Shown here piece by piece: positions 3,847 through 22,140 of a stretch of DNA of 64,000 nucleotides (its first letter is position 1; every line of letters starts with the position of its first letter). Below the pieces are notes generated by a model, which was given only the letters and a program-made list of their open reading frames with translations, ran no database searches and was not told the origin of the DNA. Both the position numbers and the translations under genes were made by a program. This DNA comes from a virus (Duplodnaviria > Heunggongvirae > Uroviricota > Caudoviricetes): the IMG/VR virus record IMGVR_UViG_3300042876_000208, positions 1 to 64,000 of that record; one strand, given 5' to 3'.

Positions 3847-4122
3847 AGTTATGCTCCTTTTTGAATATAGTACAGAATGGATGAACTTACAATCGTGGAG
3901 TTAATTCTTGGAAATCCTTGTGTTGCTAACTCTCTCCACAAAGCCGTTGAGCAGTCTTTAAAGCTACGGTTTAGCACTAGAATTCCGTTATGACTACTCA
4001 AGTTACACAGACCGGACATCAATACTTCAATCTTATAGTCATACATGGGTTACCTCCAAGAACAAAATTTATGATAGCAAAAAGGGGCAGAAATCTCCGC
4101 CCCTTGTATTACAACCCACGTA

Positions 4123-4407
4123 TTACTTTTTACACTTGCTATAGTACAGTTCCCACAACTCTTTCCGCGCCCTTTTGGAGGGAATTGTGGCAAGCAGTTT
4201 CTCAAACGCCTTGTGACGACCAACTGCTTTTTCAAAGCGGTCTTTGAAATGACAGGTCACGGAATACTTGGCGACCTCGCCGTTCACAGTATTGGTGGTG
4301 ACAAGGGTAGTAGTGCGCTTACCTTCATCATTGGTGTACTGGAAATTAAAGCCTACATTTACATACTCGAACAGATACTTTTCTTTCTTATCACTTTCTT
4401 CAGACAT
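4123..4407 (-). CDS. hypothetical protein
   Basis: 94-aa ORF, start abuts stop of 4407..5045. Confidence 0.4.
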   Translation of the reverse strand: MSEESDKKEKYLFEYVNVGFNFQYTNDEGKRTTTLVTTNTVNGEVAKYSVTCHFKDRFEKAVGRHKAFEKLLATIPSKRARKELWELYYSKCKK

Positions 4408-5045
4408 TAGTTACCTCCTTGTGGTGTTCCATTACGGAACTCAGAATGAAACCGTTCGCGGTAATTACGCCCGTTTGGGTCATACATTTTGTACACAGCT
4501 TCTTGTTCAGATGTTTCCGGCTTGGTGATGGTAGCCCAGTCGTCAAACACTATGCCAAATTCGTCCCAGGCATTGGTGCTAGTACCACCACCTTGTCCAA
4601 CATCTTCTCGCACACGGAACACACGGCGACCCACCGTTGAGCAGAGAGATACATACATTCTATTCTCTTTCATGCACAACTTATAGAGGGACTCCATGAC
4701 TTCACTAAGAGACACGTTCAATCCCACACCCTGGGCAATGCGCCACATATCTAAAGCTGAGCGGCGACGGTTGGATTCTGTTTGAGCTGATGCCCCGAGT
4801 TCATCCCCACTTTTCTTGGTGAAGGTGTTATAGGTACGAGTTAAACACAGAATCTCGTACAGAATATCCTCAAGAGAATTTCCTTCGAGTTTTGAACGTA
4901 ACTTGGTATCCACGCTGGGTGTGAAGTACAACGGCTCTACATCGTGGTTCTCTTCACAGATGTCCAAGAACAATGCAACACGCTTACCCTTATTCAGCAT
5001 CTTAAATCTCCTTCCATTTATCAAAGTCGAGGCCATATTCATCAC
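4407..5045 (-). CDS. hypothetical protein (paralog A of tandem pair)
   Basis: 212 aa; C-terminal region (RRSALDMWR...WDEFGIVFDDW) resembles 5002..5547 (KRSSLDLYR...EYGLDFDKW). Confidence 0.5.
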   Translation of the reverse strand: MMNMASTLINGRRFKMLNKGKRVALFLDICEENHDVEPLYFTPSVDTKLRSKLEGNSLEDILYEILCLTRTYNTFTKKSGDELGASAQTESNRRRSALDMWRIAQGVGLNVSLSEVMESLYKLCMKENRMYVSLCSTVGRRVFRVREDVGQGGGTSTNAWDEFGIVFDDWATITKPETSEQEAVYKMYDPNGRNYRERFHSEFRNGTPQGGN

Positions 5046-5547
5046 GCTCAGGATTGTAGATGGCCGAGCCGCCTGTGTAGTCGTATAACTTTTTCATGTT
5101 TGGCAAAGTCTGACAAACACGCTTGCAAACACCAAAGCAGTACGCCGAGTAGAACTCGTCGGCATGTTCATACAGAGTGTGCATCACATCCCATAGGGTG
5201 AACTCTGGACAATATTTGTAGATGTGACGGTACAAGTCTAGAGAGGAACGCTTTCGCCCTGCGGTGGTTTCAATCCATCCTGTTGGGTCAACACTTGGAT
5301 ACTGCATTGCAAAGTCCAGACATAACTTGATTTTGTCAAGCAAGGTTGGTGCTTCCTTGAGTTGGTTCTCTTTGTCTTCTGGTAAGAGATAGAACGTAAG
5401 AACTGTTTTTGGAAGGAATTTTCCCGACCCATCGATGATACGACACACCTGCTCTGCATAGGTCGTGGTTGGAACTAAACTAACCGTTGGTGTTTCCATT
5501 AGTACCTCCATTCGTAGCGCGTCTGCGGCGAGGTCTAGCCTCACCAA
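5002..5547 (-). CDS. hypothetical protein (paralog B of tandem pair)
   Basis: 181 aa; shares C-terminal block with 4407..5045. Confidence 0.5.
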   Translation of the reverse strand: MVRLDLAADALRMEVLMETPTVSLVPTTTYAEQVCRIIDGSGKFLPKTVLTFYLLPEDKENQLKEAPTLLDKIKLCLDFAMQYPSVDPTGWIETTAGRKRSSLDLYRHIYKYCPEFTLWDVMHTLYEHADEFYSAYCFGVCKRVCQTLPNMKKLYDYTGGSAIYNPERDEYGLDFDKWKEI

Positions 5548-6160
5548 CTTGTGGGGTTGCTGGCATATCTATCGGGGTAGCGGCCTGTTCTATTGGGGCA
5601 TTGACGGGATTAACTCTAGGCACACGCAGAGTAGCCGCCTCAGTACCACGCTGTGCTATAAGTCTATTCAGTTCATTAATAACTTCTGCTCTTGGCTCAT
5701 CATCCAAATTCTCAAGCACTTGAAAATCTATACCCAGCATCTCGTGTGCCATTGCCATCCAACCTGGGCGAGTATCTTCAACAAATCTATTCGGTTGTGG
5801 GATGTTAATACGAGCATTAGCTCTATCAGCCTCATCAATATTGAAGTCATGAGCCACTTCAGTCCAAGTGGGATTTATGGTAGTTCCAACTGTGGTGTAA
5901 GTTGAGCCATATCCACCAGAGACCTTGACCTCTTTTTCAGCGACTTTCTTGGGCTTTGGAACGTATTCGCTGATTTCAACGGTGACCGTGACTTTCAGGT
6001 TAAAGGTATAGCCACAGAATGGACATGTGGTTTTACCATCATAGTTGCTCTGGTTGATGATATACATCTGGGTTTTGCACTTAGCACAAATCACCGTGGG
6101 CGTTTCAGAACCTGACTTTACACTAGACTTTATCAGTAACATTATTCCTCCTTTACCCAA
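5480..6160 (-). CDS. zinc-ribbon protein with Arg-rich/Asn-Gly-rich tail
   Basis: CAKCKTQ...CPFCGY zinc ribbon near N-terminus; C-terminus PRRRRATNGGTNGNTNG; last gene of the ligase operon. Confidence 0.45.
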   Translation of the reverse strand: MGKGGIMLLIKSSVKSGSETPTVICAKCKTQMYIINQSNYDGKTTCPFCGYTFNLKVTVTVEISEYVPKPKKVAEKEVKVSGGYGSTYTTVGTTINPTWTEVAHDFNIDEADRANARINIPQPNRFVEDTRPGWMAMAHEMLGIDFQVLENLDDEPRAEVINELNRLIAQRGTEAATLRVPRVNPVNAPIEQAATPIDMPATPQVGEARPRRRRATNGGTNGNTNG

Positions 6161-6747
6161 TCACAAACGTAGTCAAAGAACTTTTGTCCAGCGGTCATAG
6201 TAGAGAATTCAGGATGGAATTGCGTGGTCAAAATCCTGTTATCCCGACTATAGGCTAGCTCAACAATACGGCTCTCTGGCTCAATAGCAAATGGTTCAAG
6301 ATGCTTAGAAATTTCGTCCGCAGTGTAACCTTGATGGTGCATACTATTCACATTATCAGTATAAATTTGTTGCACTGGAGTTTTCTTTAGCCACACAACC
6401 TCATGGTGGCTTGCATGGCCTGGACGAATGTCTTGAACAAGACCACCACCCAAGAGTGCATTGATAAGCTGGTGACCACGACATACACCCAGCATCTTGA
6501 GTTTCAGCCTTTGAGCATGACGGAATACTTCAAGTTCTACAGCATCCCTTTCCACTTCAATTCCTCTTGCACCATGAAAATCCTGGTTGTATAAGCGAGG
6601 TGAAATGTCTGCCCCGCCCGGAAAGATGACCAAATCCAATCTTGGCAGGATAGCCAAGTTCTTTCCAATTACAACCAGATTAGGAAAGTAAGACTTAAAG
6701 TGAGCAAAGAATGGGACTGTGGCAATCCCTACTTTTAGTTCGTCCAT
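6142..6747 (-). CDS. class-I glutamine amidotransferase / peptidase C26 (gamma-glutamyl hydrolase-like)
   Basis: GVCRGHQ nucleophile-Cys motif, HHQ, and QFHPE His/Glu motif; 201 aa. Confidence 0.7.
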   Translation of the reverse strand: MDELKVGIATVPFFAHFKSYFPNLVVIGKNLAILPRLDLVIFPGGADISPRLYNQDFHGARGIEVERDAVELEVFRHAQRLKLKMLGVCRGHQLINALLGGGLVQDIRPGHASHHEVVWLKKTPVQQIYTDNVNSMHHQGYTADEISKHLEPFAIEPESRIVELAYSRDNRILTTQFHPEFSTMTAGQKFFDYVCDWVKEE

Positions 6748-7668
6748 TTATACCTTGCTTTCAATGTAGGACAGGAGTTCAAGCGCCTTGGTTTGATTGC
6801 ACTGAGCGATGGCATCCGTCATTTCAACCTCAAGTTCTTTGCTGAACTTTTCAATTTTTTCAGGGAAATTGAGCAGGTTTTCAACCGAGAACTTGGCCCA
6901 GCGGAAAATTTCTTTTGGCAGGTCGGGATAGTCCGGGTTCGTCCAAGACGTGGAGGGTGTACGATATTCCACACCAACCAGATTCTTTCCGTTTACCTCA
7001 CCATACTTCTGAGGACGGAATTTACCAATGCGCCCATAGAGATAGGTGCGGAGACGTTCCAGTTCGGGGAATGGGGAATAAGCCGTAGCTGCAAGACCAA
7101 TGCCCATAGCGAACCCACGGATTGCTGTGCGTGGTGCAATCTCAAAGAGCGGGTGACCAGACCAGTGGATATGACCGCCAAAGTAGCGATACGGGTGAAT
7201 GGAGGCATCAATTTCTGGACTGGTATAGGATGTGTCGAAGGCATTTTCGTCCGGGTCACAGCCAAACATGTTAGCCATTTCCATCTCTGGCCCCATACTG
7301 TTCCAACGGTCAAAGTTGTATTTCAAGGTTGGGCGAACGACTGGCCCAATGGTATCGCTCGGGAACTTGGAGAGCATTTCCTTAAGTATCTCAAGACCAT
7401 TGTAAACCCGGCCAAGCAACTGTTCCCAATTTCCATTCGGAGCGGGTGGCACGGTGAATTCAAAGGCTGCACCATCTTCAATGATTTTGAGTTCCGGTGA
7501 CTCAAAGAACAGAGGGTGACGCGGGTGGTCAACAAATTTTATGCCACGAGCCAAGCGGAAGAATGCTGCCGGAATGACTTCCATATCACCGTGCATATCA
7601 ATAGCACCTGCGGCGTATTCTGGGTCACACCCAATGGTCAAATCTGAAAACTTAACATCGAAATTCAT
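6748..7668 (-). CDS. putative carboxylate-amine ligase (GCS2/COG2170-like amidoligase), divergent
   Basis: 306 aa; FGGHIHWSG HxH-G motif echoes the AIHFHVG motif of 13097..14233; directly coupled to GATase-I gene. Confidence 0.35.
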   Translation of the reverse strand: MNFDVKFSDLTIGCDPEYAAGAIDMHGDMEVIPAAFFRLARGIKFVDHPRHPLFFESPELKIIEDGAAFEFTVPPAPNGNWEQLLGRVYNGLEILKEMLSKFPSDTIGPVVRPTLKYNFDRWNSMGPEMEMANMFGCDPDENAFDTSYTSPEIDASIHPYRYFGGHIHWSGHPLFEIAPRTAIRGFAMGIGLAATAYSPFPELERLRTYLYGRIGKFRPQKYGEVNGKNLVGVEYRTPSTSWTNPDYPDLPKEIFRWAKFSVENLLNFPEKIEKFSKELEVEMTDAIAQCNQTKALELLSYIESKV

Positions 7669-7681
7669 ATAGAGCCTCCTT

Positions 7682-8101
7682 CTAAATTGAAATCTTTTTG
7701 TTCAGTAGAATTGAAAGAACAGCATTCTTGCGGCAAGACGGTGGAATAGTCTGGTCGGGTATTTTGAGCCAGCCCTCAAGACATTCCTTTCCAGCCAAGG
7801 GTGTATAGGCGGTGGACACCATATCTTCAATCTTGTGTTGATGACCACACACAAAGCACCCAGCACGAATTTGCTTGAAATCATCCTCAGTGATAAATTC
7901 CTTACCACACTTAGAGCAAAAGAATGTGATAGGATAATCTTCACCGGAATGTAATTCGCCACTCTCTGAGAGTGGTCGTGCCTCTGCCGCGCCGGGAATG
8001 AGAGTCTTTTCCTGAAACGTCCAGGTTAAGACACGCATCACCAAGCGAAAGCCCGAGATTACTGCACCACCACATTCACCTTCGTGGTAGAGTTGGCTCA
8101 T
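7682..8101 (-). CDS. zinc-ribbon protein
   Basis: CSKCGKEF ... CFVCGH pairs of CxxC. Confidence 0.4.
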   Translation of the reverse strand: MSQLYHEGECGGAVISGFRLVMRVLTWTFQEKTLIPGAAEARPLSESGELHSGEDYPITFFCSKCGKEFITEDDFKQIRAGCFVCGHQHKIEDMVSTAYTPLAGKECLEGWLKIPDQTIPPSCRKNAVLSILLNKKISI

Positions 8102-9108
8102 ATTGCACCTCCTTTTGGACTATTTCCTTCGGTAATTAAACTAATTGACAGTTGATTTGTTTCAAAGATATTTTCAAGGCTGTCCCTAAGAACCACAGTT
8201 ATAGCATCATAGACAACTATATGAACCATGCCATTCTGAATGTAAGCTGAAAAGATTGTATCTAACAGAGTATCAAGCTTAATCCTGTAGGTTTTCCTTG
8301 GGTCAAGTTTACTACTTTCCAACTTATCTTCATAAGCCTCTTTGCCTAATGCTGTTATACTCAGTAGGCTTATGGCATAATCCGTCGGTTCAGGCAAGAG
8401 TGGCATTTGCTTTTCTCCTGGGCGAAATTTATCCCGGTTACGTTCAGCATATTCCACAAGGTTAGTAATACAACCTTTACCATACCCACCCTCCACCGTA
8501 GTCCTTAGAGGATTTCCAGTAGGAACTTTCACAAACGAGATGCCGTTGGTTCCTGTGAATTGCTTGAGGTTGTGGTAGTTCACGGTTAATCCAGCAAGCA
8601 GTGCCTTGCCCGTATCGGTGATGCTCTTTGAGTCAGGGACTGGAAAGCATTGGTTAGCTGCAACATTGCAAGCCGTTGCAATCCACCCTTCAAAGTCAAA
8701 AGAGTAGACTTGATTACGCTCAGATAAGAATAGGCTTGGCCCTTTGGTATCAGGGGCGAAAGAGAACATGAAATCCTTCGCGGTAAGTTTTTTCTTTAGC
8801 CTAAAGTCCACAAGGCAGGGAACATCGAGGTCGGCTACAGTATAGAGCCAATCCATATTCTCTGGATATTTGAGAAAACCATCCAAGAGAGTATCATCGG
8901 TTGCCCTGAGAGAGCCAATATTGAGAACGTCAAGAGTACTAGGCTTGGTGACTTCAAGTTGAATTACACATTCAGCGGTTTCGGGATAAAACCTGCCGGG
9001 GAAAATAATTGTTCCCATTTCATCTTCCAACTTGCCAACCATTCTAACCAGACACTTATCGTCATTGCGTTTATCCATGACTCTTCGATTAATTACATAA
9101 TCTGTCAT
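8098..9108 (-). CDS. hypothetical protein (336 aa) inside ligase operon
   Basis: Long uninterrupted ORF, overlapping stop/start with both neighbours; no motif recognised. Confidence 0.45.
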   Translation of the reverse strand: MTDYVINRRVMDKRNDDKCLVRMVGKLEDEMGTIIFPGRFYPETAECVIQLEVTKPSTLDVLNIGSLRATDDTLLDGFLKYPENMDWLYTVADLDVPCLVDFRLKKKLTAKDFMFSFAPDTKGPSLFLSERNQVYSFDFEGWIATACNVAANQCFPVPDSKSITDTGKALLAGLTVNYHNLKQFTGTNGISFVKVPTGNPLRTTVEGGYGKGCITNLVEYAERNRDKFRPGEKQMPLLPEPTDYAISLLSITALGKEAYEDKLESSKLDPRKTYRIKLDTLLDTIFSAYIQNGMVHIVVYDAITVVLRDSLENIFETNQLSISLITEGNSPKGGAI

Positions 9109-9878
9109 ACCAAACTCCTTCCCGCTCGCCCAATTTGGATGAGCCTTTTGTGAAGTAGAACGGGTTCTACCTGATAGAGTAGTAACCCCTTGTTCATATG
9201 TAAATATCCTGCAAGTGTGTCCAACGAAGCCCTACCACCAAGAGCAGAGAGTGCATCTAAATACCTTGTGCCGTTGGCATCAATGCCATCCTGAATACCA
9301 AAGAACTCTTTTAGAACTCTGGTAATACTATCAGGAACACCATTTCGTTTGATGTATAGAGATAATCGTTTAGCCAGAGACGCTATAACTCTTGGATTTT
9401 CTAGACCTGCATTGACAATCTCCGGATAGAATTCCTCCGGTAGGTCTATAGATACATCCATATAGCTTTTAGTTATTTCAATCAAATCTCCCATCGAGTA
9501 TGGTTCAAAGGTCAATGGCACACACCTGTTGATTAGTGGTTCTAGCAAACCATCCAGTTCATTGGTTGCCATAAATACTACAAACCTGTTACTATCTAGA
9601 GTGTGGTAAAGCGTCTCCGGGTCTTGTAGCTTATGTACCTCATCTATAAAGTGAACCCTAAAGTCTTCATTGAAGGATATTCTACCATCCCTTGGCACAC
9701 TGATTTCAAAGTCACCATTCGGACACAGATAGTTGCAAGATAGCAGGGCTAACCTAGTTTTCCCCCATCCAGAAGGGCCATTAAGTAGGATGTTTAATGC
9801 CTCAGTGGTATGTTCAAGCAGGTTCGGCAAGAACAATCCCAATTGACGCATTAAAGCTGGTTGTCCCTGAAAATACAT
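9105..9878 (-). CDS. RuvB-like AAA+ ATPase (short form)
   Basis: FQGQ..LMRQLGLFL (RuvB FIGQ..VKEQL-like), Walker A GPSGWGKT, Walker B HFIDEVH, C-terminal winged-helix-like GGRASLDTLAGYL...EPVLLHKRLIQIGRAGR (RuvB EPYLIQ.GF..RTPRGR-like). Confidence 0.55.
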   Translation of the reverse strand: MYFQGQPALMRQLGLFLPNLLEHTTEALNILLNGPSGWGKTRLALLSCNYLCPNGDFEISVPRDGRISFNEDFRVHFIDEVHKLQDPETLYHTLDSNRFVVFMATNELDGLLEPLINRCVPLTFEPYSMGDLIEITKSYMDVSIDLPEEFYPEIVNAGLENPRVIASLAKRLSLYIKRNGVPDSITRVLKEFFGIQDGIDANGTRYLDALSALGGRASLDTLAGYLHMNKGLLLYQVEPVLLHKRLIQIGRAGRSLV

Positions 9879-10687
9879 TACAACTCCAAGGCGGTGCGAA
9901 GATAGTCTACATATGTCCGGGCGGTATCGGCATTGTTTGTCAAAGCTGGGGCGGTGTTTATTTCAATCAGTCGAAAACCACCGATAGCCTCTTCAAACGC
10001 TACATCAATCCTGGCCATCTTGACCGGAACAATGGCATAGAGTCTGTGAACAAAATCGCGGAGTTCGGCAATGCGTCCAAAGCCTTCATTTGAAATTCTT
10101 TTGAAGGAATAACCCATATCCTGATTACGGATTGGGAACTCAGGCTCATTATTGGCATCATTGTCCCAGACCTTTTTGAAAATCTTGGCAACCTCACCTC
10201 CGAGAATATGCACACCATATTCATAACGGAATGTATACCAAGGACTCCAATAGCTTTCACGGTGTGCAGAGAATTCTTCTGGGGTACGGGCAATGATAAT
10301 TCCCGCCCCGCCATGCCCATTCAGGACGGTACGAATACACACCGGGTATTGAGTCGGAGTACCGCGACGAAATTCAACTACAGGAAAGTCACGGTCAACA
10401 AGCTTGGTAGCCAGTCGGGTTTTGCTCCCACAAAGACTAATCACCGCAGGGGAATTGAACACGGTGTCACGACCCGCAAAGCGTTCACTACCTGCGGATG
10501 AACCCCAGCGAATTGTAGGAGGCTCATTGGTAGTGGTATAGCGAGTACCCATACCAAGTCCTTCAGCAAGGATACGTGCAGACCCAATCAAGGTATCACT
10601 AGTAAGAATGTAGGACATTCTAATTACCTCCATAAAGGAACAAATCTTCATTTGGAAAAAGATGCTGATAACTTTTGTTCTCAGCAA
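9878..10687 (-). CDS. ATP-grasp family ligase (RimK/glutathione-synthetase-like)
   Basis: 269 aa; CIRTVLNGHGGAGIIIA Gly-rich ATP-grasp loop, downstream acidic/Asn metal-binding region (IEINTAP). Confidence 0.55.
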   Translation of the reverse strand: MLRTKVISIFFQMKICSFMEVIRMSYILTSDTLIGSARILAEGLGMGTRYTTTNEPPTIRWGSSAGSERFAGRDTVFNSPAVISLCGSKTRLATKLVDRDFPVVEFRRGTPTQYPVCIRTVLNGHGGAGIIIARTPEEFSAHRESYWSPWYTFRYEYGVHILGGEVAKIFKKVWDNDANNEPEFPIRNQDMGYSFKRISNEGFGRIAELRDFVHRLYAIVPVKMARIDVAFEEAIGGFRLIEINTAPALTNNADTARTYVDYLRTALEL

Positions 10688-10937
10688 ATTTGGAAGAAAT
10701 ACGCACTTTGTCTACAATTAGACTATAGGCAGTGATAATCTCAAAGACATCCAAGATAGGAACATTTTTCAATACAAGAATGAGTATGCCATTTGCTTCC
10801 CTTGTATAGTTATCAGGATATTTCTTAACGAGGTCTATAATTAATCCCACACCTCGCTGCATAATCAATCTCGTAGAGATAGCCAGTGTCACCTCTTTTT
10901 TATCTCTGTAGATAGGTGAAAGAACTAAGTCAGACAT
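10620..10937 (-). CDS. hypothetical protein
   Basis: 105-aa ORF between the two ATP-grasp genes. Confidence 0.3.
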   Translation of the reverse strand: MSDLVLSPIYRDKKEVTLAISTRLIMQRGVGLIIDLVKKYPDNYTREANGILILVLKNVPILDVFEIITAYSLIVDKVRISSKFAENKSYQHLFPNEDLFLYGGN

Positions 10938-10947
10938 AAAGTATCAA

Positions 10948-11874
10948 TTATCCTCCAAAAGCTACCGACCACAGATATTTTGCGATACGGTAATGAATGT
11001 TCCAAGGGCCATCTTCGCCCAATGAGGCTTTGGCAAGGCGTTCATGCCGAAGTAGAGAACAAGCAGTGTTAATCTCACTCATAACAAACTTTCGGTGCGT
11101 AGTTTGGAAGATGTCGATGAAAGAGATTTTAGCGCCCACAAGTTGCTGAGCTTTAACCGCCAGGTTCAAGAGAATTTCCGGCGGTGTGGGCATGAACTGC
11201 ATGGTGTCGGATAAACACACAGACACTTTCCACTCATCGGGGTGGAACTCAGGTTTGTCCACAAAGCCATATGGAAGGGCCTCCCCATTGATAACCACGA
11301 TGCGGTACAGAGCATCATATTCAATGTATTCTTGCAGGACAAAGCGGTTGCCTAAACCATTGGCCAGGGTGGACATGGGAACAATTTCTTCTGTTCCGGT
11401 TTTCTTCCAACCACTTTCCACTTTGGTAAGCCGAAGGACACGAGCGCCCTGTTCCATGCTGGTGATGGGTTTGATAATGTAATTCCCATTTGGTACAACT
11501 GGAATATCATCAACCCGGACACTCCAAGTGCGTGGGTGTGCAATGGTTTCCTGCAATAAGAGAGAGCAAGCAAGCTTGTCGGACGTAAGCCGTAGAGCTG
11601 AAGGCTTGTTGACAATCTTAAATCCACGCCTCTCCATATCGAAGAGTGTTCCCATCCACCCGTTTTCAGACGGGTTTGCCGCACGAGCGTGTACCACAGT
11701 GTTCGCTGGGGTGAGTTCGGTATGGCGTTCAAAGAATTCCGACAACTCTGATACACGGATTACGTGTGTGTGAATGTCAGTCTTATGCTTCTTCCCGGCA
11801 ATCCACATGATAGACCGTGCAATTACGCGGCTGTAATCACCGCCAGTTTCGGTTCGTACAATAACAAAATTCAT
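10948..11874 (-). CDS. ATP-grasp family ligase (second copy)
   Basis: 308 aa; FVLQEYIEY and EINTA motifs typical of RimK-like ATP-grasp. Confidence 0.5.
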   Translation of the reverse strand: MNFVIVRTETGGDYSRVIARSIMWIAGKKHKTDIHTHVIRVSELSEFFERHTELTPANTVVHARAANPSENGWMGTLFDMERRGFKIVNKPSALRLTSDKLACSLLLQETIAHPRTWSVRVDDIPVVPNGNYIIKPITSMEQGARVLRLTKVESGWKKTGTEEIVPMSTLANGLGNRFVLQEYIEYDALYRIVVINGEALPYGFVDKPEFHPDEWKVSVCLSDTMQFMPTPPEILLNLAVKAQQLVGAKISFIDIFQTTHRKFVMSEINTACSLLRHERLAKASLGEDGPWNIHYRIAKYLWSVAFGG

Positions 11875-11883
11875 CGCTCCTCC

Positions 11884-13089
11884 TTAATGATACTGAAATT
11901 TTTTGATGGCACGTTCAATCTCATTGAAATTAGTACCCAGTCCCAAGGGGAATTGAATCTCCTTAGAATAGATACCAATTGGAATAACCGCGAACTTCTT
12001 TCGTTCTACCTCATCACGAACGGATTTTCTGCTACCAAGTCCACCGACAGCGTATTTCAAGAACAAGTCGATTTGCTTTTCTTCAAGACTCAAGAGAGGC
12101 TTGTTGAACAGAACAATGAATATAGCATCCATGTCTGCAACACTCAACCTCTCCCTCTCACGGAATTCAGCCACCCGAGTAATCTTTTGCCAAAGACCCT
12201 CCTGTGGACTAGTCCCCGAAGTATCCCCCGCGCCGTAACCAGTATTCCTCGTCGTCTGAGAGTTCACGGAGTGGACTTGTCCCTGACTGTATGACGTTTG
12301 ATACGTTTTTGCTGGTAAAGGGTTTTCGGGGCATTTCCCTACCTCCGTTAGAGTTAACCCATCGACTCTGTAGATGGTTTCCTTTTCGAGTTCTTTGACT
12401 TCCTTATCAAAGTCTATTTGAGGACTGCCGAGTAACTGGGCAATATTGGAAATGCTCAGTTGTTCATCGGATAGTGTGCCCTTTTCTGTATTGACGATAA
12501 ACCCATACGGAACTTTGTCCTTCGAGAGATGAACAATATGCAAATCGGCAGTACGTCCTCGACACACATAGAACTTGGACTCTCTGCGAACATAGATAAC
12601 CATTGCATACTTGCCCTTGCATCCGGCCATACAATTGTTGAAGGCGAGGACAAAATCCGGCTCGATTTTCAATTCCGCAGTGAGCATTTCAGCAAAGCGC
12701 TTGCTATCCGAGGGGCGGCTTTCTTCCGTTGTACTGGTTGTGGTGTTGGTATCCTTTAGCTCATCTTCAAACCAAAGAGTACCATTGTGAACGAGAACGA
12801 GTTCATCCGTCTGAAAGGGATGTACATTTTCCTCAGTTACCACAATATTCTTGCTTGCCCTGCGAACATGCGATACAATGGGATTTACCCCAAAGCCATA
12901 GTCGCTGATTAAACCACCAATGTCGCATAGTTCGCTGGCTGCGAATTTGGTTTTGAAGATACCTGACTTAGGTGAGAAAAACCCCCAACCATCCTTGTGC
13001 AGGTAGCGTGAATTCTTTGTTGCTGTTACAAGTAGTGCGGCTTTGTTAAACCGCTCAGACCGTGAGGCGATAAGTGTTATTTGGCACAT
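11884..13089 (-). CDS. class-II (Ntn) glutamine amidotransferase-like protein
   Basis: Begins Met-Cys (MCQITLIAS), the N-terminal nucleophile arrangement of GATase-II/Ntn hydrolases; 401 aa. Confidence 0.5.
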   Translation of the reverse strand: MCQITLIASRSERFNKAALLVTATKNSRYLHKDGWGFFSPKSGIFKTKFAASELCDIGGLISDYGFGVNPIVSHVRRASKNIVVTEENVHPFQTDELVLVHNGTLWFEDELKDTNTTTSTTEESRPSDSKRFAEMLTAELKIEPDFVLAFNNCMAGCKGKYAMVIYVRRESKFYVCRGRTADLHIVHLSKDKVPYGFIVNTEKGTLSDEQLSISNIAQLLGSPQIDFDKEVKELEKETIYRVDGLTLTEVGKCPENPLPAKTYQTSYSQGQVHSVNSQTTRNTGYGAGDTSGTSPQEGLWQKITRVAEFRERERLSVADMDAIFIVLFNKPLLSLEEKQIDLFLKYAVGGLGSRKSVRDEVERKKFAVIPIGIYSKEIQFPLGLGTNFNEIERAIKKFQYH

Positions 13090-13096
13090 ATTACTC

Positions 13097-14233
13097 CTAA
13101 CGATTGATTACGTGACTGAATTGGATATTGTGTACAGAGGCTTGGTGTGAGTCCAAGAAACCAGAATCTTTCAAATCTCTGGCATTTACCTTACGCCGGG
13201 GTTTATCATCCCCAGTATAGTAGAAATCTTCTTGGACATACTTATCCCAAAGGTGGGATTTTATCTCACCCTCTGGTAAGACAAATTTAGGCGCTGTACA
13301 TAAGAGTTCCCTTAGTAGGGTCTTGTACTTGGGCTGCATAGGATATGTATCAGAGAACTCATCCAAGAGTGCAAAGAGAACCTCAAGCAACTGACAATCA
13401 TCGTTGCTCTTGGTCACAGGTGCAAATGGCAGCTCTTCCAAGCGTCTCAATGGCACTTTGGTCAGCATTTCGGCTGTGCTTTGACACAGACGCATGTTAG
13501 CCAAGAACAACTGAGAGTTGACGGTGAAATTGAAATGTCTGAACTCTAATGTGCCGTGTAGTAAGATGCTCAGCAGGTTCACCCCAAAATAGCGCGATGG
13601 GTGATACCGCTTCGGTTCACGCTGACTTACACCATAAGCACGCCAGAATTCATCCACGGTTTCGGATGTTATCAGTTGCTCGTAAGAGAGTACCGGGCGA
13701 TAGTTTCCATCTTCACAACGAACAATCGGGGGCGCGGTGTGTGGTCTGCAATAAATAGCATTGTTGCTATCGCCTCTGAATGTATAGCCCATAGTCCCGA
13801 GCTGATACATGAGGCTTTCAAACTTAGCAGAGAATGTTACCGCCGATAGCAGGCTACCAAGTGAATGGGGGAAACCTACGTGGAAGTGAATGGCATTGCG
13901 AGTACCTTTCTCCAATTCACCTTCACGGTCTAGTTCACCAAGCAAGAGCGGAAAGATACGTTCAGCATCCCTAAAGTACATGGGTACTGAAATCAATTCA
14001 ACTCCCGTGGTGACTTGAGTTAAACTACGACCACTTTTAGTCAACAGATTGAAGGGGTCGATGAAATAGAGTTTGTCTGTAAGCCGCTTCAAAAAGGTTT
14101 CGGAGGATGCATCCCTATCCTTTTTAAACCAATCAAGTATCCCAAGAGTTCCTGCTCTCTCAACGAAGCGTGTGGGGATAACATTTGTGGTTTCTATTTC
14201 AGCGGCTACAGTATCAAGAATTAAACCTTGCAT
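13097..14233 (-). CDS. carboxylate-amine ligase (GCS2/COG2170 family amidoligase)
   Basis: 378 aa; AIHFHVGFP motif comparable to YbdK-type HVHVG; Glu/Arg-rich catalytic core. Confidence 0.45.
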   Translation of the reverse strand: MQGLILDTVAAEIETTNVIPTRFVERAGTLGILDWFKKDRDASSETFLKRLTDKLYFIDPFNLLTKSGRSLTQVTTGVELISVPMYFRDAERIFPLLLGELDREGELEKGTRNAIHFHVGFPHSLGSLLSAVTFSAKFESLMYQLGTMGYTFRGDSNNAIYCRPHTAPPIVRCEDGNYRPVLSYEQLITSETVDEFWRAYGVSQREPKRYHPSRYFGVNLLSILLHGTLEFRHFNFTVNSQLFLANMRLCQSTAEMLTKVPLRRLEELPFAPVTKSNDDCQLLEVLFALLDEFSDTYPMQPKYKTLLRELLCTAPKFVLPEGEIKSHLWDKYVQEDFYYTGDDKPRRKVNARDLKDSGFLDSHQASVHNIQFSHVINR

Positions 14234-14241
14234 AGTTTTTC

Positions 14242-14685
14242 CTAGAACTGGTAAACGTCATTGACAGAGTATACAAATCCAAGTTGAGTTTTATTCTCAC
14301 GGAAATTCTGGCAAAGACGCCAGATGGTTTCAATGAGGTTATTCTTAACCTGCTCTGCATTAGGAACTGAGTAGTGGCACATAATGTTATCCATGTTTCT
14401 ATCCAGTCCTTGAATATAGACCACGGTTCTATCCCCGAGCGCTGGGGTATTATTCACCTTGACCGTGCCTCCGGTGTCCTCGCAAGAGAACGTGAGTTCA
14501 TTAACACGGAGAGCGTCGTGTTGAGATAACACCCTGAAATAAATCACATCACGGTCAACACACATCATAAACGTAATGAGTGCTTCCGTCTCAGGGACAA
14601 TCGGTGGCTTTCCTACCGGGTATCGGAACATATTACCTCCTACGAGAACAAAGTAGTGAACTTCTTGATTGAATAAGCATCCCAC
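14242..14685 (-). CDS. hypothetical protein (true start probably internal Met)
   Basis: 147-aa ORF overlapping next gene by 46 nt; internal MFRYPVGK start likely. Confidence 0.35.
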   Translation of the reverse strand: MGCLFNQEVHYFVLVGGNMFRYPVGKPPIVPETEALITFMMCVDRDVIYFRVLSQHDALRVNELTFSCEDTGGTVKVNNTPALGDRTVVYIQGLDRNMDNIMCHYSVPNAEQVKNNLIETIWRLCQNFRENKTQLGFVYSVNDVYQF

Positions 14686-15245
14686 ATACGTTCAGGATGC
14701 CATTGAACTGCAAAGATATTTGCATCGACCGAGATGGCTTCAACAAGGCCTGACTCTTCAGAGTTAGCCTCAACCCTAACACCGTTACCTAAACGAGCAA
14801 TTCCCTGGTGGTGGAAAGAGTTTGTACGAAACACGCTCCTATCCCGTGTAGTAACACGGTGAACCAAATCAGTCTCGTGCTGAGAGTAGGGATGGTCAAC
14901 AAGGTCTTGACGCAGAGTTCCACCAAAGAACACATTCAACGCCTGCAACCCTCGACAAATCCCAAAGATTGGAAGCTTTGCTTCAACGAACAAAGGTAAA
15001 ACGTGGTCGTCAAAGTATTCCAGGTACGTGTTGGGTTTAGATGTTCGATACTCAGGCCATTGACCATACTTACCGGGATAAATATCTGCACCACCGGGAA
15101 GAACAATTCCGTACAAGAACTTGAGGGGTTCTTCCAAGGACGGGGTTACAATTACGGGTGTTCCAACCTGTTCAATCCAATACAGGTAGTTTGTGTGAAC
15201 ACCAAACACACCATCTGTTTCCGAGCCAGGAATTCCAATTCGCAT
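14640..15245 (-). CDS. class-I glutamine amidotransferase / peptidase C26 (second copy)
   Basis: GICRGLQ nucleophile motif, HHQ, WHPE; 201 aa; first gene of operon. Confidence 0.7.
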   Translation of the reverse strand: MRIGIPGSETDGVFGVHTNYLYWIEQVGTPVIVTPSLEEPLKFLYGIVLPGGADIYPGKYGQWPEYRTSKPNTYLEYFDDHVLPLFVEAKLPIFGICRGLQALNVFFGGTLRQDLVDHPYSQHETDLVHRVTTRDRSVFRTNSFHHQGIARLGNGVRVEANSEESGLVEAISVDANIFAVQWHPERMWDAYSIKKFTTLFS

Positions 15246-15521
15246 CGTTAGCCTCCTTTAGCTAATAATACAGCACCGAGTATGCACATCAAAATCCACA
15301 GTGCAATCAAACCTCTTGATAACATATTGCCTCCTTAAATTCTCTTATCATGCTTGTTGGAGATATAGGTATCCAGCATAGTTGCGAATGTGTTGGCTAG
15401 AAAAATAATGCCCAGGCCAATCAAAATAGTTCCGAGGTCAGAAACATTATAATTTCCAGAATATATCTTATCCAGAACAAATTCAATTCTTTCAGTAATC
15501 CTTCTGTTCATATTACCTCCT

Positions 15522-17341: not shown

Positions 17342-17499
17342 ACCTTCTCCTGCTATAACTTCATTACGGACATTGCCGTAATACATCATTCGCATCAGAG
17401 CTGTACTACTTATACTACTCAGGGTTTAGAACACTCTATTTTTACTTTCGCGGGTCGCTAAATCCGCTGTGGAAGAATGTTCAAGAGAACCACCAGAGT

Positions 17500-17571
17500 G
17501 CCCTCGCAGGGAATCGAACCCTGATTGCCAATTTAGAAGATTGGAGCTTCTATCCATTGAGCTACGAGGGC
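17500..17571 (-). tRNA. tRNA-Arg (anticodon UCU)
   Basis: Hand-folded: acceptor GCCCTCG/CGAGGGC, D-arm, anticodon stem CCAAT/ATTGG with loop CTTCTAA (UCU), T-arm CAGGG-TTCGATT-CCCTG; 72 nt, no encoded CCA. Confidence 0.7.
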
Positions 17572-18536: not shown

Positions 18537-19109
18537 CTAAAAGAATGGAAAGATAGTCTTTAGATGTTCAGTATATTCCACATCAAAACCATCACAGCAA
18601 CTGACACGAACACCATGTGTTTCCACGTAGTAATTCAAATCCACTGAGATGGTCTTAAATTTATCAGAGAATTTGTGGCCTTTGAGATAATTAATACACT
18701 CTTTCCAGCCTTTATTATCGGGAAAGGATAGAGCAAATTCTTTCAGTTCCTTGATTGCTGCATCTAAGTCTTCCGGCTCAAAGCCTAAACTAACTGAGAT
18801 GTTCTCATATCCTTCAAGACCCCACCGCAGGTCAAAGATGCAATATTCAAGGTCATCACGTTTTACCTTTAACGTTCTTTTCAGACTTTTGCGTACTTGC
18901 TTGACAAGAAAATGATTTAAAAGAACTTCATTCTCAGGTTTTATTTGTAAATTGACCTCGGAGGCCTTATTCACTTGCTCTTTGGTCAATACCAACATAG
19001 TCCCTGAGTGACGTGGACTTTCGATTACGTAGCTATCTTCATCCAGTTTAAACATCAAAGGACGTGCTTTGTGGTTTACAAGAACGGCTTCTGTTTCCAT
19101 ATCAATCAT
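18537..19109 (-). CDS. hypothetical protein
   Basis: 190-aa ORF. Confidence 0.45.
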   Translation of the reverse strand: MIDMETEAVLVNHKARPLMFKLDEDSYVIESPRHSGTMLVLTKEQVNKASEVNLQIKPENEVLLNHFLVKQVRKSLKRTLKVKRDDLEYCIFDLRWGLEGYENISVSLGFEPEDLDAAIKELKEFALSFPDNKGWKECINYLKGHKFSDKFKTISVDLNYYVETHGVRVSCCDGFDVEYTEHLKTIFPFF

Positions 19110-19473
19110 CCTCTTCCATAGTTATTTGCACGATATGGGGTATCCATTTCCAACTGCGGAAATCGAATTGCTTGTCTCCGCGAGTGGCCCAAAGTTCCCA
19201 AGCCTCTGAACCAAGGTCAATGTTTATCTTCCCTTCGCCATAGCGTTTACTGTCAAATACATCGATGGTTAGGGAATTAGACAACTGCATCATATTGGTA
19301 TAGGTATTCAGAGTAACCATATCCACACCAAATTCTGAAATGAACTTGACTACCTTTTCATGCCTGGTTCTTACTTGTTGGCGTAAAGACTCTGGATATT
19401 GTTCCTCCTCAATCTTGAGAAAATAATCCAGCAACTTTCCGGCATGTGTACCTTTCAGAGTTTCAATATCCAT
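19102..19473 (-). CDS. hypothetical protein
   Basis: 123-aa ORF overlapping neighbour by 8 nt. Confidence 0.45.
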   Translation of the reverse strand: MDIETLKGTHAGKLLDYFLKIEEEQYPESLRQQVRTRHEKVVKFISEFGVDMVTLNTYTNMMQLSNSLTIDVFDSKRYGEGKINIDLGSEAWELWATRGDKQFDFRSWKWIPHIVQITMEEDD

Positions 19474-19480
19474 AACAACC

Positions 19481-19714
19481 TCACTTTACTGAATAAGTAG
19501 GAACAGACTCACAATGGTCATAAATGTCTGTAGGTGAGTGAAACATTTGTGCTACCCAGCCACGCTTGTAGCATACTTCACTCACAGTACAACCATGCCA
19601 TCCACCTAAGATGTTCATATGGCAGTCACGCATTTCAACGCGCTCTGTGGACATCATACCCATTCCCAGAGCAATGAGTAAAGCCACGATTATGATTAGA
19701 ACCAGGTTTTGCAT
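19481..19714 (-). CDS. small secreted/membrane protein
   Basis: 77 aa, N-terminal hydrophobic helix, four Cys. Confidence 0.4.
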   Translation of the reverse strand: MQNLVLIIIVALLIALGMGMMSTERVEMRDCHMNILGGWHGCTVSEVCYKRGWVAQMFHSPTDIYDHCESVPTYSVK

Positions 19715-19819
19715 ATTATCCTCCTTGAATTTAGTATGGTCTTACGAAAGAGCTAGTGCAGCGATGAACCACACTAGCCCTGGGCCTTACATTTGTTGCA
19801 CTGACACTACTTGCTTATA

Positions 19820-20431
19820 TTATTCCATACCATCCTGGTAGATGTCGTATGGATTTTCACCGAACACGTCGCTGGGCTTGACGGTGACAGGCATAACAAA
19901 GATAGAGATGAGGTCACCGCTGTTCAACATGACCGACACCGCGCTTTTGCCAGCCTCAACAAAGAGGGTATAGGCACGTGTGATGGCCTGCTTGAGCAAT
20001 GCGGGAACGCTGCTTGCCGGGACAACTTTCCATCCGTCACTTTCCAGGTATTGAACCAAGGCTGCCATATCTTTGTAGTTGGCAATCGTGCCACGCCCGA
20101 AGGTAGCTTTCAACCACCCGCTGATGGGGGTTTCAAACATAACTTCACCACCGGACTGAATGGCATTACGCATCATGGTGAAGCCAACACCACCGCCGGG
20201 TGTTCCCCATGCGAACAGGTAATTCTCACCATTGGTCAGGATGTAAGTACCCGTTCCACCCGTTACGGCCTGATTGAGCCAATACAGGGTAGTGCCGAGG
20301 TGAGCCGCGTAAACCTGGCCATCCGGAGGCAGGGGCGGGTTGATGGTCGCCGCAGATGGGTCGGGGGCGCAGGCGGCCAAAACGAGGGTCATGATTGTTA
20401 CAAACAACAGAGCGATACGAGCAAGTTTCAT
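19820..20431 (-). CDS. lipoprotein (signal peptidase II substrate), GC-rich island
   Basis: MKLARIALLFVTIMTLVLAAC lipobox; Gly/Thr-rich mature part; local GC visibly higher than flanks. Confidence 0.55.
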   Translation of the reverse strand: MKLARIALLFVTIMTLVLAACAPDPSAATINPPLPPDGQVYAAHLGTTLYWLNQAVTGGTGTYILTNGENYLFAWGTPGGGVGFTMMRNAIQSGGEVMFETPISGWLKATFGRGTIANYKDMAALVQYLESDGWKVVPASSVPALLKQAITRAYTLFVEAGKSAVSVMLNSGDLISIFVMPVTVKPSDVFGENPYDIYQDGME

Positions 20432-21283: not shown

Positions 21284-22042
21284 TTAGGCCTCCTTGTGGA
21301 ACAGGAAAAGCTTACCATCATTGCTCTCGAAATGCTTCTTTATTTCAGGATTGCTCATAGCATGCCAACCGGAGTCCACGTTATAAAACACGCAAATAAT
21401 ATCATCGTCTGCGGTATTGATTACATTCTTGAAAAATGCTTCCATACCATCTGGGCGGGTCATCGGATTATAGGCATAAATAAGATTGTAGCTCTTGAAA
21501 TCCCAGGTTGTAATATCACCCTGTTTCACGTTAATTGTTCTTCTTAATGCTTTAGCCGGAGAAACTAGGAACGGATTATATTCCACACCCTCCCAGATAT
21601 TAGCGGTAGTCTTGAACACACAATCAAAGAATGTCTGAGCAAGTAAAACCTTATCGCCCATGCCTGAGCCTGCATCTACAAAACGAATGGTATCAGTTTT
21701 AGTTCTAAGCAGTTTAGTCGCTTTGTGCATAGTAAAAATAAACTCATCTGACCAAAGAGGAATGTAAGGATAGGCATCAAACCCACTGGGCGGGTTTTCA
21801 GCGTCTTTACCAAATTTTTTGCACTCAAAAATAGACTCACTGAGATTAAGCCGTTTCTCAAGTACATACATAACTCTTGGTGGAAGATAGTTATCTGGGT
21901 TATCATCCAAGTATTTCAGGACACCTTGGCAGATAAGCGGGGTTGGAATAATATTGAGAATAGGTGAGTCCGATTCTGAACTCACTAGCAACTTGAGTGC
22001 CTCAGAAGCGGTTTCTGGAAAATCAAATATTACTTGTTTCAT
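21284..22042 (-). CDS. putative class-I SAM-dependent methyltransferase
   Basis: FVDAGSGMGDKVL resembles MTase motif I; start moved to internal Met (perfect AAGGAG RBS 7 nt upstream), which avoids overlap with the tRNA-like element. Confidence 0.4.
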   Translation of the reverse strand: MKQVIFDFPETASEALKLLVSSESDSPILNIIPTPLICQGVLKYLDDNPDNYLPPRVMYVLEKRLNLSESIFECKKFGKDAENPPSGFDAYPYIPLWSDEFIFTMHKATKLLRTKTDTIRFVDAGSGMGDKVLLAQTFFDCVFKTTANIWEGVEYNPFLVSPAKALRRTINVKQGDITTWDFKSYNLIYAYNPMTRPDGMEAFFKNVINTADDDIICVFYNVDSGWHAMSNPEIKKHFESNDGKLFLFHKEA

Positions 22043-22074
22043 TTCAGTCTCCTTTTTGAATTGTATGAAACAGA

Positions 22075-22140
22075 AGCACCGATGGGATTTGAACCCATGC
22101 ACAGCGTATCCGCTTGCTCTACCAACTGAGCTACGGTGCT
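22075..22140 (-). other. tRNA-like element with truncated anticodon arm (66 nt)
   Basis: Perfect acceptor AGCACCG/CGGTGCT, canonical U8 and D-arm GCTCAGTTGGTAGAGC, canonical T-arm ATGGG-TTCAAAT-CCCAT, but only 16 nt (AGCG-GATA-CGCT-GTGC) where the anticodon arm plus variable loop (~22 nt) should be. Confidence 0.45.

Follow-up and report, generated by a model that had tools for sequence, protein, structure and literature searches.

How can a tailed phage make use of a compact operon that encodes four ATP-dependent amide-bond ligases, three enzymes cleaving glutamine or gamma-glutamyl bonds and a RuvB-like motor, and does such a combination represent a new kind of system? The question is raised by a locus on the minus strand of the first 64,000 nucleotides of the IMG/VR virus record IMGVR_UViG_3300042876_000208, a stretch hereafter referred to as the window. 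The phage genome is ~93.5 kb in size and its assembly is circularly permuted (contig coordinates of three pieces); the window together with ~20 kb of flanks amounts to 84 kb, i.e. the whole genome apart from ~10 kb between the flanks. Judged by the homology of its enzymes, the operon belongs to a known kind of system: it is an enlarged version of the amidoligase cluster predicted for phages phiEco32 and LUZ24. It also carries an add-on, shared by 16 contigs, that is both new and lineage-specific and is composed of a RuvB-like ATPase, an orphan protein of ~330 amino acids (aa) and a double zinc-ribbon protein.

The phiEco32/LUZ24-type cluster

The operon is not without precedent, as the four core enzymes, i.e. 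the COOH-NH2 ligase, Amidoligase_2, the class-II glutamine amidotransferase (GATase) of the N-terminal nucleophile (Ntn) type and one of two ATP-grasp ligases (ATP-grasp B), are homologous to gp80, gp83, gp84 and gp86 of phiEco32 and to gp16, gp18, gp19 and gp21 of LUZ24. In BLASTP comparisons the COOH-NH2 ligase matched LUZ24 gp16 (4.5e-7) as well as phiEco32 gp86 (Table 1), and the Ntn GATase of the window matched LUZ24 gp19. According to the annotated records, the cluster of LUZ24 and phiEco32 is located directly upstream of the primase/helicase and comprises, in order, a COOH-NH2 ligase, an uncharacterised gene, Amidoligase_2, a class-II GATase, an ATP-grasp ligase and a gamma-glutamyl cyclotransferase (GGCT).

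The features shared with the window are the type-2 COOH-NH2 ligase, an Amidoligase_2 gene with the Ntn GATase gene right after it, the ATP-grasp ligase of the gp80/gp21 type, and placement in a phage region of early/middle type. In the window the GATase gene begins 7 nt past the Amidoligase_2 stop codon, and the same adjacency is found in LUZ24 (gp18-gp19), in phiEco32 (gp84-gp83) and in most of the other loci. The window differs in that two C26 enzymes replace GGCT, which is found in its relatives L005, L014 and L018, and in that its class-II GATase is a shorter protein, without the zinc ribbons found at the C-termini of gp19 and gp83. The double zinc-ribbon protein of the window (Zn139) may be a free-standing counterpart of these ribbons (hhalign E 1e-3, probability 21%). 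Further extras of the window are a RimK-like ATP-grasp ligase (ATP-grasp A), the RuvB-like protein, a 336-aa orphan and a 165/197-aa protein family. The remaining proteins of the two reference clusters (phiEco32 gp85, gp87 and gp88; LUZ24 gp17, gp15 and gp14) show no similarity to any window protein in BLASTP and hhalign comparisons, and they were ruled out as cryptic homologues of the RuvB-like protein, the orphan, Zn139 or C26.

An analysis of the cluster was published by Iyer, Abhiman, Burroughs and Aravind (2009), a study that PMC10580990 cites for a proposed role in cell-wall modification and superinfection exclusion. Its genes are routinely annotated or listed in later phage papers, including those on LUZ24-like phages (PMC3890496, PMC3517423, PMC6209634), and two Pfam families are named after it, one of which (PF14395, COOH-NH2_lig) carries phiEco32 in its name.

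Relatives of the amidoligase, with 26-56% identity, were found on contigs of 26-93 kb carrying the same gene set, and a profile of the COOH-NH2 ligase added 15 further contigs. The four core genes occur together in ~26 distinct phage contigs (the window, L003, L005, L006, L012-L014, L016-L019, L028, L033-L044, L046, LUZ24 and phiEco32), arranged in at least four gene orders. In these relatives the genes are syntenic; the scattering that would have spoken against the interpretation given in a first-pass annotation of the window was not seen. Since the clustering outlasts the shuffling of gene order, we consider it to reflect one functional system.

C26 enzymes are encoded in ~16 loci, typically adjoining the COOH-NH2 ligase gene, with or without a RuvB-like protein, while GGCT or GGACT enzymes are encoded in ~10, and both types are present in L005, L014, L018, L039, L040 and L043. 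Nearly all core-cluster loci thus contain a gamma-glutamyl-cleaving enzyme of one type or the other. Two non-homologous enzymes that have the same bond specificity and occupy the same neighbourhood point to cleavage of a gamma-glutamyl-amine bond as a conserved step. The fetched stretch of L019 contains no C26 gene; it has a second, short (260-aa) Ntn GATase-domain gene (2178-2960) ~3 kb upstream of the cluster, whose product may replace the C26 function.

Enzymes of the operon

The enzyme calls that the first-pass annotation had made from motifs (C26, amidoligases, ATP-grasp, Ntn GATase and RuvB-like) agree with the results of profile searches, and in the five enzyme families that were aligned the active-site residues are unchanged across 12-13 homologues each. 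Among the ligases, Amidoligase_2 has E12, E14, E79, H116, H118, R153, E230 and R232 invariant in 13 homologues. The COOH-NH2 ligase, whose match to Pfam PF14395 (1.6e-3, 18.1 bits) lies under the cut-off of 25, has D15, E17, E70, H166, H168, R207, R218, E234 and R236 invariant in the alignment of its homologues.

The two ATP-grasp ligases are only remotely related (hhalign E 8e-5) and represent separate families. ATP-grasp A aligns to the RimK family across positions 26-279 of its 308 residues and also matches glutathione synthase (1.4e-5); it is an accessory component, confined to the window, L003, L013 and L017. In ATP-grasp B the ATP-binding Lys (K66) and the Mg-binding Asp, Glu and Asn (D205, E219, N221) are invariant, and there are weak matches to D-Ala-D-Ala ligase (1.4e-3 and 3e-4).

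The closest solved relative of the first C26 enzyme (C26 #1) is PuuD (6vtv, 8e-17), and its NCBIfam matches, to PuuD (1.7e-19) and to gamma-glutamyl-CDP-amidate hydrolase (1e-15), do not come near the equivalog cut-offs. The second (C26 #2) has the triad C89, H178 and E180 invariant in 12 homologues, C26 #1 having the equivalent GICRG...WHPE motif. The first-pass annotation had also described the operon as duplicated in outline, with an amidoligase and a C26 enzyme at each end. This likeness is confined to the layout: the ligases belong to different families and show no pairwise similarity, and the C26 enzymes are 34% identical.

The Ntn GATase has C2, R76, N102, G103 and D128 invariant in 13 homologues. 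The counterparts of these residues in GlmS are C1, R73, N98, G99 and D123. As this Cys/Arg/Asn-Gly/Asp set binds the glutamyl moiety, the enzyme is predicted to act on glutamine or on a gamma-glutamyl amide; it also shows a weak match to EgtC (1.1e-3). A cyclotransferase of the GGCT/AIG2 type was sought among the window proteins and not found, the two C26 enzymes being encoded instead. The closest named relatives of the operon enzymes all handle Glu or gamma-glutamyl groups: PuuD, SpuA, gamma-glutamyl-CDP-amidate hydrolase, RimK, MptN, LysX, CofF, glutathione synthase, GlmS, PurF and EgtC. SpuA is included here on the assumption that the PDB entries 7d4r, 7d53 and 7d50 ("probable glutamine amidotransferase"), which are C26 relatives, represent this protein.

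Proposed pathway and its acceptor

We propose, with a probability of roughly one half, that the operon encodes a cytoplasmic, ATP-driven pathway, contained in one transcription unit, which first forms and later trims amide bonds of the gamma-glutamyl type on one and the same acceptor. In such a pathway, Amidoligase_2 and the COOH-NH2 ligase, both of the glutamine synthetase (GS) fold, would couple a carboxylate, activated as an acyl-phosphate, to an amine. The Ntn GATase would either deliver glutamine-derived ammonia to Amidoligase_2, converting a carboxylate into a carboxamide, or remove a gamma-glutamyl group in the manner of EgtC. One or more further residues, most likely of the Glu type, would be added by the ATP-grasp ligase(s), and the gamma-glutamyl group would be released by C26 in the window and by GGCT in phiEco32, LUZ24 and other relatives. 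The gamma-glutamyl group may therefore serve as a transient masking or activating group, comparable to that of the Puu pathway (PuuA/PuuD) or of butirosin synthesis (BtrJ/BtrG).

Several known systems resemble parts of this scheme. In the Puu/Pau pathway a GS-fold ligase gene lies beside that of a C26 hydrolase, gamma-glutamylation acts as a transient mask, and PuuD is the top solved and named match of C26 #1. The window differs from this pathway in that its ligases are not PuuA orthologues (no match to the PuuA model), it has no oxidase or dehydrogenase, and the PuuD model gives 70 bits against a cut-off of 266. During butirosin synthesis the ATP-grasp ligase BtrJ installs a gamma-glutamyl group that is later removed by the GGCT-fold cyclotransferase BtrG. 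In this analogy the counterpart of BtrG would be GGCT, which is encoded by many relatives of the cluster; the window has no carrier protein, pyridoxal phosphate-dependent decarboxylase or acyltransferase. The ergothioneine pathway combines a GCS2-type ligase (EgtA) with an Ntn class-II amidohydrolase that removes glutamate (EgtC). Here the corresponding window matches (EgtC, glutathione synthase) are marginal, and EgtB, EgtD and EgtE are not encoded.

The leading candidate for the acceptor, at less than even odds, is a soluble or nucleotide-linked small molecule, a category that includes peptidoglycan precursors and polyamines. We rank it first because the characterised C26 and GGCT enzymes known to us, as well as most relatives of the ligases, act on small molecules. 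Acceptors of two other kinds, namely DNA or a DNA-bound component and a host or phage protein, appear unlikely, each to much the same extent. The three hypotheses of the first-pass annotation (tag, DNA modification and envelope) cannot be separated by sequence data.

Several points count against the pathway proposed here or against a small-molecule acceptor. The matches of the COOH-NH2 ligase (Pfam), of both ATP-grasp ligases and to all equivalog models fall under the curated family cut-offs, and five of the 16 genes of the unit, encoding the 129-, 105-, 336-, 195-220- and 94-aa proteins, have no assignable function, and neither have the paralogous genes for the 165- and 197-aa proteins. Full-text literature searches returned no experimental characterisation, substrate, product or phenotype for any member of the cluster family. 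In NCBIfam, C26 #2 scores slightly higher against GMP-synthase subunit A than against PuuD or gamma-glutamyl-CDP-amidate hydrolase, and it could therefore be an ammonia-donating glutaminase instead of a hydrolase; from sequence these two roles of C26 cannot be told apart. Finally, a small-molecule acceptor leaves unexplained both the placement of the cluster among replication genes in many phages and the linkage of a RuvB-derived motor and a zinc ribbon to it through rearrangements (L019, L033).

A special case of the small-molecule acceptor, which we regard as improbable, is the remodelling of peptidoglycan precursors, e.g. for superinfection exclusion, as in the proposal attributed to Iyer et al. 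(2009) and mentioned above. It is consistent with the weak matches of ATP-grasp B to D-Ala-D-Ala ligase and with the apparently cytoplasmic location of all the proteins, the cytoplasm being the site of UDP-MurNAc-peptide synthesis. Moreover, the stem peptide contains gamma-linked D-Glu, amidated residues and D-Ala-D-Ala. However, the D-Ala-D-Ala ligase matches are marginal, and the cluster contains no Mur-ligase, transpeptidase or lipid-II-related genes. It is also found in phages whose hosts are as different as Escherichia, Pseudomonas and marine OM43 and are expected to differ in stem-peptide chemistry, and late changes of the wall would be of little gain to a lytic phage.

An acceptor that is a protein would imply modification or tagging, with Glu or a peptide added in the style of RimK or PafA and with C26, GGCT and the class-II GATase as editors or erasers. 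The similarity of ATP-grasp A to RimK and LysX, whose substrates are protein C-termini, fits this reading, and PafA provides a precedent, being a GS-fold ligase with an amidase and an AAA+ ATPase as partners. In addition, enzymes of the GGACT family cleave the gamma-Glu-epsilon-Lys bond, and the 165/197-aa family, which travels with the cluster (four copies in L012), could be the substrate. The likeness to pupylation (PafA/Dop and Mpa) extends to the presence of GS-fold ligases, amidase-type partners and an AAA+ ATPase in one locus, but the window phage has no proteasome, its ATPase is of the RuvB type and not of the Mpa/ARC type, and a comparison of the C-termini of small proteins in seven loci gave no conserved Pup-like tag: none of these proteins is conserved and ends in a fixed Glu, Gln or Gly motif. 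ATP-grasp A is restricted to four loci, and all characterised C26 and GGCT enzymes that we know of act on small molecules. The LysW/LysX amino-group carrier system does not match either: the LysX model gives 41 bits, its cut-off being 276, so that no LysX orthologue is recognised, and in place of the acidic EDWGE-type C-terminus of the small zinc-ribbon carrier the Zn139 family has C-termini that are hydrophobic or basic, and variable. Taking all this into account, a protein acceptor seems rather unlikely, and a small molecule acted on by a gamma-glutamyl pathway is still the reading that we prefer.

The RuvB-like protein and its partners

The genes for the RuvB-like protein, the orphan and Zn139 have no counterpart in LUZ24 or phiEco32, and the literature search found no paper that links RuvB-like proteins to amidoligase clusters. 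All 18 of the 18 PDB sequence matches of the RuvB-like protein are to RuvB, and its AAA+ core, sensor motifs and winged helix align with bacterial RuvB along the full length, although it is shorter (257 vs ~335 aa) and scores 60 bits where the equivalog cut-off is 282. Its invariant motifs are Walker A, Walker B, sensor 1, NR, NPR and the C-terminal GR, and sensor 2 is kept. In profile alignments with RuvB (3pfi, 1in4), ~15 residues (RuvB 134-150) are absent between Walker B and sensor 1, as are ~28 N-terminal RuvB residues. From the RuvA-RuvB structures, we take the position of this gap to be that of the RuvA-binding beta-hairpin. Neither RuvA nor RuvC was seen in the 84 kb of the genome.

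The RuvB-like protein is encoded in 16 related contigs of 46-97 kb, each time within or beside the amidoligase cluster. When its profile was run against IMG/VR, the four contigs with proteins at 33-39% identity all contained the cluster (4/4), while none of the six remoter genes (22-29% identity) was accompanied by it (0/6).

Fourteen of the 16 RuvB-like loci have, directly after the RuvB-like gene, a gene for a fast-evolving protein of ~290-390 aa, which is the position of the 336-aa orphan in the window. A full HMMER scan of 1.84 billion representative proteins yielded only six representatives and only four real relatives of the orphan, and a word-indexed search returned the protein itself alone. 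One further candidate, P0034 (4363 aa, cadherin-repeat; E 1.6e-24, 23 stretches), was rejected as an artefact of 23 identical 142-aa repeats, each contributing 32 bits. The AlphaFold2 models of the orphan were poor (predicted local distance difference test scores of 31 and 53 in two runs), and Foldseek comparisons with PDB and BFVD gave no match under E 0.02. Four relatives encode, in addition, a 250-aa protein family that is paralogous to the N-terminal half of the orphan (hhalign E 5e-6). The Zn139 gene is, in most loci, a neighbour of the COOH-NH2 ligase gene; this holds for the permuted L019 as well, but not for L033.

It is quite conceivable, although somewhat short of probable, that two systems are present, i.e. 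that the RuvB-like protein, the orphan and perhaps the zinc ribbon form an independent recombination or replication module nested in the cluster, an arrangement that would fit any acceptor. L019 has its five amide-chemistry genes in one block, with the genes for the RuvB-like protein and a 286-aa protein at the end; the add-on is missing from 10 clusters, and the contigs that carry it resemble a single phage lineage, being alike in size and having flanking genes (e.g. Band_7) in common. On the other hand, the association with the cluster is complete among the IMG/VR relatives of at least 33% identity and absent below 30%, and it persists through three rearrangements (the window order, L019 and L033). 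The start and stop codons of the add-on genes overlap with those of adjacent enzyme genes, and the RuvB-like protein is devoid of the presumed RuvA-contact region, no RuvA having been seen in the phage.

The same linkage bears on whether the acceptor could be DNA. Hypermodification of DNA or deoxynucleotides would have the ligases place an amino-acid or glutamyl-type group on a base, the RuvB-like protein and its partner moving the enzymes along DNA. The RuvB-like protein retains its ATPase motifs and the winged-helix GR and is linked to the cluster in all 16 contigs, in three gene orders, and the zinc-ribbon proteins of the unit favour a DNA-linked target. The position next to the primase/helicase in LUZ24 and phiEco32 is in keeping with this, as are the flanks of nine clusters without the RuvB-like gene, which consist mostly of replication genes (DnaB, AAA_24, SF2 helicases, SSB, Prim-Pol, Toprim and ThyX). 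Genes for dCMP deaminase and MazG are located just outside the window. Lee et al. (2021) reported that, in viral contigs, amidoligase and amidotransferase genes co-occur with genes for thymidine hypermodification, and treated them as activities that await discovery (PMC8989533). The clusters for thymidine hypermodification (Lee et al. 2018, 2021) are likewise biosynthetic, phage-borne and located in a region of DNA metabolism.

However, the enzymes that define those clusters were not found here. The first-pass annotation had seen no enzyme forming 5-hydroxymethyluracil (hmU) or 5-hydroxymethylcytosine (hmC) in the window, and a Pfam search of the 71 window proteins agrees with this. No dUMP or dCMP hydroxymethylase, 5-HMUDK, aGPT-Pplase, TET/JBP, DpdA or glycosyltransferase of this kind was detected in the window, in the ~20-kb flanks (by precomputed Pfam annotation) or among the neighbours of nine other clusters. 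The RuvB-like protein is missing from 10 clusters, those of LUZ24 and phiEco32 among them, and we found no report of modified DNA for these two phages. Modification of DNA or deoxynucleotides is thus an unlikely explanation. Still more doubtful is the specific proposal that the RuvB-derived motor, its ~330-aa partner and the zinc ribbon couple the amidoligases to DNA and thereby place an amide-linked mark on phage DNA or on a DNA-bound protein.

Organization and base composition of the unit

The coordinates of all genes and signals are given in Table 1. The genes from 15245 down to 5480 were described in the first-pass annotation as a co-transcribed unit of 11 genes on a single strand, overlapping or abutting one another. 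The gene calls agree with a single unit, but the number of genes in this interval is 13, the 129-aa and 105-aa reading frames having been overlooked. These 13 genes are close-packed, no two neighbours overlapping by more than 4 nt or being separated by more than 13 nt, and the packing continues through the last three genes of Table 1, giving 16 genes from 15245 down to 4123 with junctions between a 20-nt overlap and a 13-nt gap, and with no gap exceeding 13 nt. The transcription unit most likely extends to the terminator-like hairpin and comprises all 16 genes. Location on one strand is in itself a weak argument, given that the minus strand carries almost all genes of the window. The first gene is preceded by an 89-nt gap containing the promoter-like site; this site is weak evidence, since such sites are no more numerous in the region than in shuffled sequences. 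A riboswitch or other RNA element was sought upstream of the operon, and none was found.

Table 1. Genes and signals of the amidoligase unit, in the direction of transcription (positions within the window)
Feature	Position	Strand	Length (aa)	Matches and remarks
Promoter-like site TTGATG-16-TATTAT	15265..15292	-		consensus match
C26 #1, class-I GATase-fold gamma-glutamyl hydrolase-like	14640..15245	-	201	PF07722 5.5e-33
129-aa protein	14242..14631	-	129	no Pfam/PHROG match; same-position orthologue in L003 (33% identity, 1.5e-26)
Amidoligase_2, GS-like carboxylate-amine ligase	13097..14233	-	378	PF12224 6.9e-9, 36.4 bits (cut-off 22); phrog_2443
Class-II (Ntn) GATase with ~210-aa C-terminal region	11884..13089	-	401	PF13522 1.2e-8, PF13230; begins Met-Cys; no fold assigned to the C-terminal region
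ATP-grasp A, RimK/LysX/MptN-like ligase	10948..11874	-	308	TIGR00768 5.4e-11, MptN 7e-11, LysX 9e-11; all under cut-offs
105-aa protein	10620..10937	-	105	C-terminus ...LYGGN; no Pfam/PHROG match; no detectable orthologue
ATP-grasp B, homologue of phiEco32 gp80/LUZ24 gp21	9878..10618	-	246	phrog_2599 8e-17; BLASTP gp80 4.7e-8, gp21 5.8e-7
RuvB-like AAA+ ATPase, shortened, C-terminal winged helix	9105..9878	-	257	NF000868 1.4e-16
336-aa orphan	8098..9108	-	336	start overlaps RuvB-like stop by 4 nt
Double zinc-ribbon protein (Zn139)	7682..8101	-	139	HxxC and three CxxC; 14-member alignment
COOH-NH2 ligase, phiEco32-type (type 2)	6748..7668	-	306	phrog_3815 7e-16; BLASTP gp86 1e-10
C26 #2, class-I GATase-fold	6142..6747	-	201	PF07722 6.2e-26; start abuts COOH-NH2 ligase stop
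Zinc-ribbon protein, low-complexity basic C-terminus	5480..6142	-	195-220	weak zinc-ribbon matches; two gene calls differ in start
165-aa protein, paralogous family with RRRSxLDxWR motif	5002..5499	-	165	family comparison
197-aa paralogue of the 165-aa protein	4407..5000	-	197	family comparison
94-aa protein, last of the packed unit	4123..4407	-	94	weak homologue downstream of the L005 cluster
Terminator-like hairpin	4082..4105	-		10-bp stem with 6 GC pairs, then TTTTGC; best of the region

The unit had also been noted as richer in GC than the structural module and, on this basis, as a possible acquisition. The difference is real (45.2% in the operon vs 38.2% in the rest of the window), but acquisition is not supported by it. 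Genes that are equally GC-rich occur in the window outside the operon (19.8-20.5 kb, 22.7-23.6 kb and 51.2-52.4 kb), and in 10 relatives the GC content of the operon follows that of the genome (26-48%), exceeding the flanks by ~1-4 points. As the operon tracks the composition of its genomes and is ancestral to the phage lineage, we reject recent acquisition.

Other genes of the unit and of the phage

Apart from the enzymes and the add-on, the unit contains several small genes. The zinc-ribbon protein that follows C26 #2 is lineage-specific, having no homologue in the other loci. The proteins of the 165/197-aa family (150-320 aa) have in common the invariant motif R-S-x2-D-x2-R and a conserved Cys, and most of them end with a DEYGxxFxxWxxI tail; their genes lie beside the cluster in two copies in the window and four in L012 (12016-14693), and are also found in L014, L016, L017 and L033. 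This family could be a substrate of the cluster or a separate family concerned with host takeover. The 105-aa and 197-aa proteins end with ...GGN, and the zinc-ribbon protein mentioned above ends with ...GGTNGNTNG, which is reminiscent of Gly-Gly tags. A ubiquitin- or Pup-like tag was nevertheless rejected, the motif not being kept at the equivalent position of L003 or in the paralogues.

Genes for RNA repair (RtcB and a PF09414-type RNA ligase of ~210 aa) lie beside the cluster in six relatives (L006:7960-8586, L012:2779-3951, L013:15538-16176 and 18750-19847, L014:21315-end, L018:11849-12499 and L034:14647-15882), and in L013 the RNA ligase gene is inserted within the cluster, between the zinc-ribbon gene and that of the COOH-NH2 ligase. 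A link of the cluster to RNA repair was not adopted, as the window phage has neither RtcB nor RNA ligase in the 84 kb.

The window also contains genes for terminase, portal, tape-measure and GH25 lysin. No match was found when the operon (megablast) and the amidoligase (tblastn) were compared with 50,697 GenBank phages, and the terminase gave a single match, with 23% identity; we therefore regard the phage as uncultured and distant from known ones. Scanning IMG/VR for close relatives with the amidoligase alone as the query gave none, the relatives described above having required profile scans. Prophage copies were sought in 185,579 genomes as a guide to the host, and just two fragments of metagenome-assembled genomes, ~2.5 kb each, were found.

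Beyond position 1 of the window (L011:10620-19914) there is a convergently transcribed module with genes for the ribonucleotide reductase large subunit, MazG, Toprim primase, HNH, dCMP deaminase and a 472-aa DUF2828/DUF7788 protein. Past the opposite end, DnaB, two PD-(D/E)xK nucleases and a protein with the RNase_H_2 fold are encoded. The sole tRNA called by ARAGORN is tRNA-Arg(TCT) at 17498-17571. A 67-nt tRNA-like sequence (22074-22140, minus strand), not called by this program, matches the Rfam tRNA model (53.3 bits, E 1.3e-8); its acceptor, D and T arms are normal and its anticodon arm is apparently shortened or irregular, and it overlaps the annotated GTG start of the reading frame 21284-22102. 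Within the structural module, a 387-aa protein (49003-50166, minus strand) matches PHROG 2170, "glycosyltransferase" (8.8e-37), and has no Pfam match at E 1e-3; its real role may differ from this label.

Conclusions

The gene cluster of the window is genuine, clearly delimited and statistically robust. The phiEco32/LUZ24-type cluster is widespread, occurring in phages of Escherichia, Pseudomonas and marine OM43 as well as in many metagenomic contigs, and it takes up 10-20% of the genome of some small lytic phages. Seventeen years after its prediction we found no product assigned to it. The stable four-enzyme core and the near-obligatory gamma-glutamyl-cleaving step described here narrow down its chemistry, and the linkage of the cluster to a RuvB-like motor in one lineage is a clue, open to testing, that DNA or something close to it may be the target. 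Should the motor indeed couple the amidoligases to DNA, this would represent a motor-assisted route of hypermodification with a starting point other than hmU or hmC, and the whole phiEco32/LUZ24 cluster family would have its first function. The function of the cluster would explain a common "auxiliary" module of phages, and may turn out to be a new modification of nucleic acid, protein or metabolite in the conflict between phages and their hosts.

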